The translations under genes were made by a program, and so were the position numbers. From positions 1 through 64,000 of IMG/VR virus record IMGVR_UViG_3300025118_004802: DNA of 64,000 bases, one strand, 5' to 3'. The notes under the pieces were generated by a model. The model was not told the origin of the DNA. It saw nothing but the letters and a program-made list of their open reading frames with translations, and made no database searches. Within the stretch, counting starts at the first letter, position 1; every line of letters starts with the position of its first letter. Positions 59,983 to 63,099 of this stretch are shown here, in pieces. The stretch is from a virus.

Positions 59983-60237
59983 TTAATTAGATCTCACGAG
60001 ATTCTTTCTACACCAATGAAGCGTTCTTTCTCTCTCGTTTCCAGATTTAAGCGTCCTTACAAGCACACGCTCGGCTGCCTCATTGATACTCATAATCATT
60101 ACCTTGATCGTCGGATTAGACCTCATATGGTACTCCCCTTTGTCGAGGTGTATATGCTTATATTTTTCGTATTCTTGTAGATATCTTTGCTGACTGTTCA
60201 TGGATATTCTCTTAATCGGTGTAATCGGTATACTCAT
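59983..60237 (-). CDS. Hypothetical protein
   Basis: 84-aa ORF immediately downstream of the tRNA-like gene; start uncertain. Confidence 0.45.
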   Translation of the reverse strand: MSIPITPIKRISMNSQQRYLQEYEKYKHIHLDKGEYHMRSNPTIKVMIMSINEAAERVLVRTLKSGNERERTLHWCRKNLVRSN

Positions 60238-60248
60238 CTTTCAACCAG

Positions 60249-60325
60249 TGGGCGATCTGGGGCTCGAACCCAGATGTGACCAGTTACTCTTTCTACGGCT
60301 TATAAGACCGAGGAGATAATCGCCC
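60249..60325 (-). tRNA. Non-canonical tRNA-Ile(UAU)-like RNA lacking a conventional D-arm
   Basis: Acceptor stem GGGCGAT/ATCGCCC plus discriminator A; T-arm CTGGG-TTCGAGC-CCCAG; anticodon hairpin CGGT-CTTATAA-GCCG. Only 8 nt separate the acceptor and anticodon stems, and 22 nt separate the anticodon and T-arms. Confidence 0.7.
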
Positions 60326-60333
60326 ATGTTCTT

Positions 60334-60362
60334 AATATAACAAACTAAGAACGCTCTGTCAA
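60334..60362 (-). promoter_or_regulatory. Sigma70-type promoter driving the tRNA-like gene
   Basis: TTGACA-17 nt-TATATT, with the -10 box 8 nt upstream of the RNA 5' end. Confidence 0.75.
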
Positions 60363-60372
60363 GCCTAAAGAC

Positions 60373-60519
60373 CTATCTCTTTCCCTGTCCTCGATACTTC
60401 TTCTTATAATGTTTTGACTGACCCTGGGGGCCAGCAGACCCCCACTTAGTAAAAGCACTGCACCCCTGGCGAGTTTTCTTCTTTGGGGTGCTGTTTCGCT
60501 TGATATTACCACTTGCCAT
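60373..60519 (-). CDS. Small basic 48-aa protein ending in YRGQG (below the ORF-track cutoff)
   Basis: MASGNIKRNSTPKKKTRQGCSAFTKWGSAGPQGQSKHYKKKYRGQGKR; TGATG coupling with the upstream gene. Confidence 0.7.
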   Translation of the reverse strand: MASGNIKRNSTPKKKTRQGCSAFTKWGSAGPQGQSKHYKKKYRGQGKR

Positions 60520-61028: not shown

Positions 61029-61112
61029 TGGTAGGGAAGGCGGGATTTGAACCCGCAAGCCGTGAAGCGGGAGATTTTAAGTCTCCTGTGTATGCCATTC
61101 CACCACTTCCCC
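61029..61112 (-). tRNA. tRNA-Leu(UAA), CCA encoded
   Basis: Acceptor GGGGAAG/CTTCCCT, D-loop TGGAATGGCATAC, anticodon arm GGAGA-CTTAAAA-TCTCC, long variable arm, T-arm GCGGG-TTCAAAT-CCCGC and 3' ACCA. Confidence 0.95.
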
Positions 61113-61125
61113 AAATCATATTATT

Positions 61126-61154
61126 ATGATACATGAGGTTGGAGGGGATGTCAA
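61126..61154 (-). promoter_or_regulatory. Sigma70-type promoter driving tRNA-Leu
   Basis: TTGACA-17 nt-TATCAT. Confidence 0.75.
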
Positions 61155-61630
61155 GCATTGTTTTTTTTCAAAAGATCGTCATCTTCCAAAGTTTCCAAAT
61201 AATCAAACTGCATCTTTTGGAGATTACAGGTGAAAAAAGGATCCACTTCTTCGAACTCTTTGAGATAACGATTACTTACGATAGGTTGGAATGTGGAAAT
61301 TCCGTGATCCTTGATATAATTAACATAAAAAGGGTTGTCATCAAAGTATACCTGAATATCGTATTTTTGCAGCAGCTTAAGCTTGTGGCGCGCCATTTTT
61401 TTAAAATGACTTAGATCCATTTGAGTTTTGTCATACTCATAACCGCCCAGAATGGCTTTATAGTGAGTATTCTCCACACCCAATTTAACTAGAGCTTCCT
61501 CAACTTCGTATAATTTAGAAGGAGGCGTCCCTGTAATGATATAAACGTCGCCAGGCCAGCTTTTAATTAAATTTACAAAAAATACAGGATCATATGATAT
61601 TGTATCGTGGAAATCTAGCCCTAAATTCAT
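61151..61630 (-). CDS. HAD-like phosphatase
   Basis: LGLDFHDTI, IITG, K and YFDDN. Start placed at ATG 61630 (ATGA overlap). Confidence 0.6.
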   Translation of the reverse strand: MNLGLDFHDTISYDPVFFVNLIKSWPGDVYIITGTPPSKLYEVEEALVKLGVENTHYKAILGGYEYDKTQMDLSHFKKMARHKLKLLQKYDIQVYFDDNPFYVNYIKDHGISTFQPIVSNRYLKEFEEVDPFFTCNLQKMQFDYLETLEDDDLLKKNNA

Positions 61631-62469
61631 CTTGTTAACATAAATAACAACGGCCAAGCAGGGATAATCCTGAGGTCTTGTGGTGTTACCACAGCACAAC
61701 CCTCTCCCGAGCTGTCGTGGTCATCAGATGGCGCTGAGAGACTGTCGCTTTTAGTAAAGCTGTTCGGGCTCCACTCAGCGGTGTCCTGAATCCCATTACC
61801 GTTGCGGTCGTGATCGCAAGCATCTCCAATGCCGTCTCTGTCATGATCCTCCTGATATGTATTTGGTACTGAAACACAGTTGTCAACATGATCATAGTTA
61901 TAGTCGTTATCCATATCGTTTGCGCATTTCATATTTCTACGGTAGTCGCGGCGATGTAAAAGTGGGCACTCATCCATAATATCGTCCACACCATCGTTGT
62001 CATCGTCAGTATCACAGACATCTCCTAGGCCGTCGAGATCTGTGTCGATTTGACTCGGATTAGGAAGACCCGAGCAGTTATCATCAGTGTTATTGACTGA
62101 GTCTCCGTCTAAGTCTTCGTCACAAGAATCACCCACGCCATCTGCGTCGCGATCATATTGGTTAGGGTTCCAACTAGTCAAACATGTGTCACATGCATCC
62201 CCCCATCCATCAGCATCTCGGTCTGACTGGTCCGGGTTTGAGTCCCATGGGCACGTATCGAAATTATCCTCTATGCCGTCCTCGTCATAATCGTCTGCAT
62301 ATTGATAGCTATCACCTTGATCAGTATTTGCGATTAAAACACTACCTCCCCCTCCTCCGCCGCCAGATTCCTCCGGAGTGCCACACAAGCCGCCGGCGCA
62401 TTCGCCCTCTTCCTCAGCGTATACGGGGTTTGCCAGGAGGGCACTAATCATAATTATATTTTTTAACAT
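61627..62469 (-). CDS. Secreted thrombospondin type-3 repeat protein with a MYXO-CTERM-like C-terminal anchor
   Basis: Signal peptide; repeated D-x-D-x-DG-x-GD-x-CD / DNCP Ca-binding units; ends GEGCAVV...AWPLLFMLTR. Confidence 0.8.
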   Translation of the reverse strand: MLKNIIMISALLANPVYAEEEGECAGGLCGTPEESGGGGGGGSVLIANTDQGDSYQYADDYDEDGIEDNFDTCPWDSNPDQSDRDADGWGDACDTCLTSWNPNQYDRDADGVGDSCDEDLDGDSVNNTDDNCSGLPNPSQIDTDLDGLGDVCDTDDDNDGVDDIMDECPLLHRRDYRRNMKCANDMDNDYNYDHVDNCVSVPNTYQEDHDRDGIGDACDHDRNGNGIQDTAEWSPNSFTKSDSLSAPSDDHDSSGEGCAVVTPQDLRIIPAWPLLFMLTR

Positions 62470-62484
62470 TCTATTTTCCCTTTT

Positions 62485-63099
62485 TTAAATTATATCGTCG
62501 ATGAGACCATATTCCAGGCAAGTCTTTGCATCCCACCATAGATCGCGTTTAAGCATCTCTTTAAGTTTTTTCTTAGGGATCCTGGTATATTGTGTATAAA
62601 TATCGGTTATCGTGCGCATTAACAATTCGTTATTCGTCATCTCATCCTTTAACTCTTCAAACTTCCCCCAACTTATCGAGGATAGTTGATGGATCAACAT
62701 AAACGAATGCTCTCTCATTAAGCGTTTCTTGGCAACTACAGACATTAAAGTAGCTGCAGAGGCTGCGCAGCCATCAATAACCGATGTTACTGGAATCTGA
62801 CTACTTTTTATGTAGTCGACTGCAGACATCCCCGCGAACACGCTCCCTCCGTAGCTGTTAATATACAGTTGTATACCAGTTGGACAACTTTCTAAGCCAA
62901 GTGTGTTAACTTGATTAAGTAAGCTGATATTTAGGGATGTGATCTTTTTATTCAAAGTTAAAATTTTTGCACGGTTAACTTCCGAATAGAAATATATCCT
63001 GTTGTTCATAGTCTCCACACGATCTTTAGACTCATTTTCATCCGTGCTGGGATCAGAGTCCGAGCCTAGTCGCTGAGTGTTCTGAGTCCAAGTTAACAT
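62485..63099 (-). CDS. clpP: ATP-dependent Clp protease proteolytic subunit (ClpP-like)
   Basis: YINSYGGSV, AASAA (catalytic Ser), MLIHQ (His), RDLW (Asp) and EYGLID. Confidence 0.85.
   Translation of the reverse strand: MLTWTQNTQRLGSDSDPSTDENESKDRVETMNNRIYFYSEVNRAKILTLNKKITSLNISLLNQVNTLGLESCPTGIQLYINSYGGSVFAGMSAVDYIKSSQIPVTSVIDGCAASAATLMSVVAKKRLMREHSFMLIHQLSSISWGKFEELKDEMTNNELLMRTITDIYTQYTRIPKKKLKEMLKRDLWWDAKTCLEYGLIDDII

Follow-up and report, generated by a model that had tools for sequence, protein, structure and literature searches.

We identified a 77-base gene of an uncultured marine phage that probably encodes a working isoleucine tRNA for the codon AUA, in which the pieces of the D-arm are joined in an order different from that of the universal cloverleaf. 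The layout is conserved in a family of 75 distinct sequences, is missed by tRNA gene finders, and was not found described in any paper in our full-text literature searches, which did not reach subscription journals and supplements. The gene lies on the minus strand of the window (the whole analysed stretch of 64,000 nucleotides, positions 1 to 64,000 of IMG/VR virus record IMGVR_UViG_3300025118_004802); the record comprises 81,821 bp and is estimated to be 45% complete. Our best reading, to which we assign a rough probability of 0.8, is a functional elongator tRNA-Ile with the anticodon UAU, although its transcription, processing, aminoacylation by IleRS, tertiary contacts, and L-shape are inferred from sequence alone.

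Inspection of the gene confirmed the earlier note, which had described a tRNA-Ile(UAU) without a D-arm before the anticodon and with a D-loop-like GG after it. The gene has (i) a perfect 7-bp Watson-Crick acceptor stem; (ii) a perfect 5-bp T stem with a TTCGAGC loop; (iii) a canonical 7-nt anticodon loop (C32, U33, UAU, A37, and A38) closed by 4 pairs plus a U.U; and (iv) only 8 nt between the acceptor and anticodon stems, so that no D hairpin fits, and 22 nt between the anticodon and T stems. A TTGACA-17-TATATT promoter, matching 11 of 12 consensus positions, precedes the gene (Table 1). ARAGORN reported only tRNA-Leu(UAA) and a tmRNA in the window, and the default Rfam run did not list the gene, which reflects the finders and not the gene. 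With permissive filters, the Rfam tRNA model RF00005 scored it 30.4 bits against a threshold of 29, deleting the D arm (15 model positions) and inserting 18 nt in the variable region. Folding of the single sequence was uninformative (z = -1.77), and the MFE structure missed the conserved 3-bp helix described below.

Table 1. Features of the rewired tRNA gene, its surroundings in the window, and loci mentioned in the text. R1 is the family model built from the 75 aligned sequences; L numbers denote loci retrieved in the scans.
Sequence	Coordinates	Strand	Feature	Evidence or remark
Window	60357..60362	-	-35 hexamer TTGACA of the gene's own promoter	Invariant in the relatives L168, L141, and L170 although their flanks diverge
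Window	60334..60339	-	-10 hexamer TATATT, preceded by TG (extended -10); 17-nt spacer; 8 nt before tRNA base 1	A start about 7 nt downstream would leave a leader of 0-2 nt (inference)
Window	60249..60325	-	Whole rewired tRNA-Ile(UAU) gene, 77 nt including discriminator A; no CCA encoded	92.5 bits with R1 (the window is one of the 75 training rows)
Window	60319..60325	-	Acceptor stem, 5' strand (tRNA positions 1-7); includes C4 of a C4-G69 pair	All 7 pairs covary across the family
Window	60316..60318	-	UAU linker, read as U8, A9, and U22	Invariant in 75 of 75 sequences; assignment to U8/A9 is inference
Window	60313..60315	-	CUC, strand of the 3-bp D-stem-like helix before the anticodon arm (topological counterpart of 23-25)	Pairs with 60287-60289
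Window	60296..60312	-	C26-like base, then the anticodon arm: U.U plus a 4-bp stem and loop CUUAUAA; anticodon UAU at 60302-60304
Window	60290..60295	-	UAGAAA internal-loop strand	GAAA present in all 62 loci of a scan whose pattern did not ask for it
Window	60287..60289	-	GAG, second strand of the D-stem-like helix, after the anticodon arm (counterpart of 10-12)
Window	60274..60286	-	D-loop-like segment: U13, A14, A15, two bases, G18 G19, U20, C, A21, then C, A, U48-like	Invariant UA, GG, and CA
Window	60257..60273	-	T arm: 5-bp stem with loop TTCGAGC
Window	60249..60256	-	Acceptor stem, 3' strand, plus discriminator A73
Window	59983..60237	-	84-aa ORF starting 11 nt after the tRNA; possibly co-transcribed	ATG and its position conserved in relatives; no family match
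Window	60221		9-nt in-frame insertion near the start of the 84-aa ORF in a marine metagenome contig (run X3)
Window	61029..61112	-	Canonical tRNA-Leu(UAA), the record's only other tRNA	15.2 bits with R1
Window	61126..61154	-	TTGACA-17-TATCAT promoter of tRNA-Leu(UAA)	Ends 13 nt before the gene
Window	61627-62469	-	280-aa secreted protein with thrombospondin-type repeats, MtsC-like	E = 5e-81; 272.8 bits, below the 350-bit cut-off
Window	62485-63099	-	204-aa ClpP-like protein near the tmRNA	E = 2.6e-30; 105.6 bits, cut-off 120
Streptomyces phage Yaboi	74542-74618		Rewired Ile(GAU)	Unannotated
Streptomyces phage Yaboi	86686-86763 (L216:287-365, NC_048730.1 86686-86764)		Variant, most likely rewired Arg(UCU)	Annotated tRNA-Val(aac); 51.5 bits with R1; GGA after the D-like helix
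Streptomyces phage Yaboi	91004-91080		Rewired Arg(CCU)	Unannotated
Achromobacter anxifer LMG 26857 contig (L195)	4231-4688		tRNA array with a permuted-type tmRNA around a rewired Arg(CCG) gene	tmRNA tag ANDAHFKVAAHA
L114	8271-8353		Length variant of the rewired layout
L088	3248-3330		Length variant of the rewired layout
L100	3299-3381		Length variant of the rewired layout
L080	1428-1507		Length variant of the rewired layout	G-G mismatch at 7:66; may be decaying
L034	2981-3056	-	Length variant of the rewired layout
L049	5780-5853		Length variant of the rewired layout
L188	2737-2811		Length variant of the rewired layout
L037	707-798		Locus with the UAU anticodon arm and a long stretch before the T arm
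L024	8280-8370		As L037
L028	1742-1840		As L037
L004	10145-10234		As L037

To determine whether the gene is a one-off, we scanned virus and prokaryote sequences for relatives. A scan of IMG/VR for this anticodon arm followed by a T arm gave 116 loci, 6 of which had the same D-less layout. A second scan, which specified only the segment after the anticodon arm plus the T arm and was thus blind to the anticodon and the 5' half, gave 62 loci, all with the same 77-nt layout. A scan with the 5' linker plus the anticodon arm gave 7 loci, comprising 6 members already found and 1 chance match inside a coding region (L117). A looser pattern applied to one genome per prokaryote species gave 35 loci, of which 30 passed the layout filter, 1 was a 75-nt variant (70.2 bits with R1), and 4 were chance matches. 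BLAST against GenBank phages found 7 Streptomyces phage records. Together, these searches gave 75 distinct 77-nt sequences from phage contigs, cultured Streptomyces phages, and prophage-bearing bacterial records, which aligned without a single gap. Longer or shorter variants (74–83 nt) with longer or shorter internal loops and D-like loops and with UAU or Arg anticodons also exist, and score 44–70 bits with R1.

We tested a structure composed of the acceptor stem (columns 1-7:70-76), a 3-bp helix closing around the anticodon arm (11-13:37-39), the anticodon stem (16-19:27-30), and the T stem (53-57:65-69). In this structure, 94.2% of cells are standard pairs, compared with 58.0% in 500 column shuffles, none of which reached the observed value, and 35-49% when the partners were slid by 1–3 columns. 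The 3-bp helix is paired in 75 of 75 sequences, with double changes at all 3 pairs (15, 32, and 25 cells). RNAalifold, given only the alignment, predicted exactly these 19 pairs, and the 16 highest APC-corrected mutual-information pairs are all located in these helices. These counts are not corrected for relatedness among the sequences, the scan patterns fixed some columns (R, Y, GG, CA, and GAAA in one scan), and our filter required at least 2 of the 3 pairs in the new helix; however, this filter rejected only the 4 chance hits and the 75-nt variant. One detail of the extended helix proposed in the earlier note, the T15-A32 pair, is not supported, because column 32 varies (A40, T28, C6, and G1) while column 15 is almost always T.

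The segment that follows the 3-bp helix behaves as a D-loop. It consists of invariant U and A, then R, 2 bases, invariant GG, 1 base, Y, A, invariant C and A, and a final Y preceding the T stem, which we read as U13, A14, R15, 16, 17, G18, G19, 20, 20a, and A21, with the last Y as position 48. R15 and the Y48-like base covary as a Levitt pair would (A:U 58, G:C 13, G:U 1, and A:C 3; Fisher p = 6e-11, not corrected for relatedness); the scan patterns allowed R and Y independently. The next strongest non-helical coupling is between the middle anticodon base and the base after GG. This base is A in 15 of 15 members with arginine anticodons (ACG, CCG, CCU, GCG, UCG, and UCU), and U (58) or C (2) in the 60 others (UAU 42, GAU 9, CAU 8, and UAC 1). 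Similarly, the discriminator is A in 60 of 60 non-Arg members and G in 12 of 15 Arg members. The bacterial determinants listed in Table 1 of PMC9976931 are A20 with A/G73 for Arg, and A73, C4-G69, U20, A35, U36, A37, and A38 for Ile; these Ile determinants are all present in the window gene, with U20 depending on our mapping of the relocated loop. By contrast, the E. coli Ile determinants C29-G41 and U12-A23 are not present under our mapping (the window has G29-C41, and G-C at the pair mapped to 12:23), but these may not hold for the host of this phage. A decoy or a dead gene would have no reason to keep synthetase determinants matched to its anticodon; this is the strongest argument that these RNAs are charged and that the relocated loop is a true D-loop.

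Members of the family are located in phage tRNA arrays at 5 loci. In a complete 220,489-bp phage with terminal repeats, none of the 33 tRNAs found by ARAGORN, nor the one Asp gene that Rfam adds, carries UAU or CCU; only the 2 rewired genes do (95 and 81.1 bits with the family model). RF00005 scores these 2 genes 31.5 and 28.0 bits, compared with 42.7-69.7 bits for the other tRNAs of that phage. ARAGORN reported 0 of 16 rewired genes (11 of the 77-nt type and 5 variants) in the loci scanned. Streptomyces phage Yaboi holds 3 members, of which 2 are unannotated and 1 is annotated as tRNA-Val(aac), a reading that takes an internal loop as the anticodon loop. In phage TomSawyer, an HNH endonuclease CDS annotation runs over part of the gene. 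The family is not strictly confined to virus records. A CAU-type member lies next to a canonical tRNA-Ile(GAU) in Pedobacter nyackensis and in a Sphingobacteriaceae MAG, but we rejected the idea that it is the bacteria's own essential tRNA-Ile2, because only 1 of 121 genomes sampled from that family holds a match (only 39 first-look candidates were scored per genome, which limits sensitivity) and because the Pedobacter copy lies beside a phage portal gene (phrog_64, E = 8e-51). The Achromobacter copy lies in a dense tRNA array with a tmRNA inside a 486,889-bp contig of an isolate genome, probably a large prophage or island. These copies look like prophages.

The record of the window holds one member. 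Because the window gene is a training row of R1, RNAalifold and the relatives are the independent support for it. Three IMG/VR fragments (L168, L141, and L170) carry the same gene in the same setting, with identical -35 and -10 hexamers and spacing despite diverged flanks, and with the 84-aa ORF starting 11 nt downstream in all of them. The 4 substitutions inside the L141 tRNA all preserve pairing, and the close relatives L141 and L170 carry the double change of A to G plus U to C at the R15:Y48 pair. L141 and L170 also encode CCA, in contrast to the window gene. In 39 ORFs of at least 120 aa, all on the minus strand, AUA accounts for 321 of 1141 Ile codons (28%; 16.6 per 1000), and UUA, read by the only other tRNA of the record, accounts for 320 of 1493 Leu codons. 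Both phage tRNAs therefore serve heavily used A-ending codons, and both are separate promoter-driven units among minus-strand ORFs. The DNA recurs in marine metagenomes of 22 studies. Two RNA-library runs each gave one contig covering about 60246-60378 only, with flanks unlike the window; these are copies of relatives, and presence in an RNA library does not show transcription. The MtsC-like protein matches the MYXO-CTERM cohesion protein MtsC model below its cut-off, which only hints at a myxobacterial, GC-rich host in which AUA and UUA would be rare.

On the basis of these results, we infer that the gene is transcribed from its own sigma-70-type promoter, that its product obtains CCA from the host, and that it reads AUA for the phage. 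Of the functions offered in the earlier note (a TilS-independent AUA decoder, a nuclease-resistant tRNA, or a tRNA decoy), AUA decoding fits best; the argument for TilS independence is reasonable but rests on general considerations. In a cloverleaf, the order is acceptor, 8-9, D 5' strand, D-loop, D 3' strand, 26, anticodon arm, variable loop, and T arm. In the window gene, the order is acceptor, U8-A9, D 3'-like strand (normally 22-25), C26-like base, anticodon arm, a 6-nt strand ending in GAAA, D 5'-like strand (normally 10-13), D-loop, and T arm. The short helix could still stack on the anticodon stem, and the loop could still make the U8:A14, R15:Y48, and GG/T-loop contacts, so that an L-shape would be kept with a three-way instead of a four-way junction. 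The D-like helix has only 3 pairs plus a U.U, and the anticodon stem has a conserved U.U at 27:43 (70 of 75 unpaired), so stability and decoding may differ from those of a normal tRNA; in addition, an unmodified U34 could misread AUG. The acceptor/T minihelix used by RNase P, 3' processing, the CCA enzyme, and EF-Tu is unchanged, and the anticodon stem-loop handled by the ribosome is canonical. The conserved GAAA may dock in a groove of the short helix.

Other explanations appear less likely. The RNA could be tRNA-shaped but not used for decoding, serving as a decoy or sponge for a host tRNA-targeting nuclease or modification enzyme, or as a tRNA-like processing module that defines the 5' end of the mRNA of the downstream 84-aa ORF. 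The gene indeed stands alone behind its own promoter, 11 nt before an ORF whose start is conserved, and encodes no CCA, and phage tRNAs are known to counter tRNA-cutting defences (PMC10264068 and PMC11555353). However, a decoy or processing signal has no need for synthetase identity elements, yet A20/U20 and the discriminator track the anticodon class; moreover, the anticodon loop and U33 are kept, members fill otherwise empty anticodon slots in phage tRNA arrays, and many members lie inside arrays and not before ORFs. We therefore consider this explanation unlikely.

It is more doubtful still that the rewired core changes decoding or identity, for example through relaxed wobble or charging with an amino acid other than Ile, so that AUA is read unusually. 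The conserved U.U at 27:43 leaves an effective 4-bp anticodon stem, and 4-bp anticodon stems have been linked to near-cognate reading (PMC13092985), but the Ile determinants listed above are present, the scaffold also carries GAU and Arg anticodons that need no special decoding, and the ORFs of the window show nothing odd under table 11. The least likely explanation is a decaying pseudogene that lost its D-arm by deletion, or an ordinary cloverleaf drawn wrongly. Although the single-sequence fold is not significantly stable and the Yaboi variant is annotated as a cloverleaf tRNA-Val(aac), this explanation is contradicted by the 75 distinct sequences that keep every helix through compensatory changes, by the conserved promoter, by the lack of space for a D hairpin, and by the alignment of the Yaboi gene as an Arg(UCU) member by the family model.

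A further, speculative possibility, which we regard as unlikely but not excluded, is that the re-threading is an adaptation and not a neutral oddity. It would keep every surface that synthetases, EF-Tu, and the ribosome need but change the backbone path through the D/variable region, so that host tRNA-targeting defence nucleases or tRNA-decay enzymes that read that region would fail to cut the Ile and Arg tRNAs of the phage, and phage translation would go on when the host's own tRNAs are destroyed. If so, it would be a natural second solution to the tRNA fold that works on bacterial ribosomes and was selected in the phage-host arms race.

Comparison with the closest known systems revealed that (i) the gene shares with canonical class I elongator tRNA-Ile (RF00005), including the rare TilS-independent UAU form, the 7-bp acceptor stem, A73, a T arm with a TTCGA-type loop, the 7-nt anticodon loop with U33/A37/A38, a length near 76 nt, the U8, A14, R15, G18, G19, A21, and Y48-like bases, and the presumed AUA decoding, but its two D-stem strands lie on either side of the anticodon arm and its D-loop leads into the T stem; (ii) metazoan mitochondrial tRNA-Ser(AGY) (PMC9427863 and PMC4013460) also has no D hairpin at the usual place and a short linker between the acceptor and anticodon stems, but has lost the D-loop and its elbow contact and needs co-evolved partners, whereas here the D-loop bases are kept but relocated, a D-like helix is still formed, and the tRNA must work with ordinary bacterial machinery; and (iii) the synthetic D-arm-less mini HisT used by evolved E. 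coli (PMC11551756) shows that bacterial HisRS, EF-Tu, and ribosomes accept a tRNA without a D hairpin, but it is man-made, lacks bases 11-25 altogether, is predicted to be Y-shaped, and needed a pnp mutation to escape degradation. The authors of that 2024 study state that all known bacterial tRNAs are cloverleaves and that arm size is the whole extent of structural diversity in cytosolic tRNAs. A conserved natural family that reaches the same tertiary contacts with a different strand order would show that the L-shape can be built from a three-way junction, that bacterial synthetases, EF-Tu, and ribosomes tolerate that build, and that current finders and annotations undercount phage tRNAs, which skews studies of codon usage against tRNA content. 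The family also offers a ready scaffold for orthogonal tRNA design.

Two additional features were noted. The 204-aa ClpP-like protein near the tmRNA of the window matches the model of the head maturation protease, ClpP-related, best, ahead of housekeeping ClpP models, and may be a prohead protease rather than part of a tmRNA-ClpP quality-control pair. In addition, of the 116 IMG/VR loci holding the UAU anticodon arm, 97 have a long stretch before the T arm and only 19 have a normal short variable loop. Most of the long ones are 90-99-nt genes that ARAGORN calls tRNA-Ile(tat), with a small D arm and a long variable arm whose 7-nt loop carries a conserved AGAU motif and so displays GAU like a second anticodon loop.
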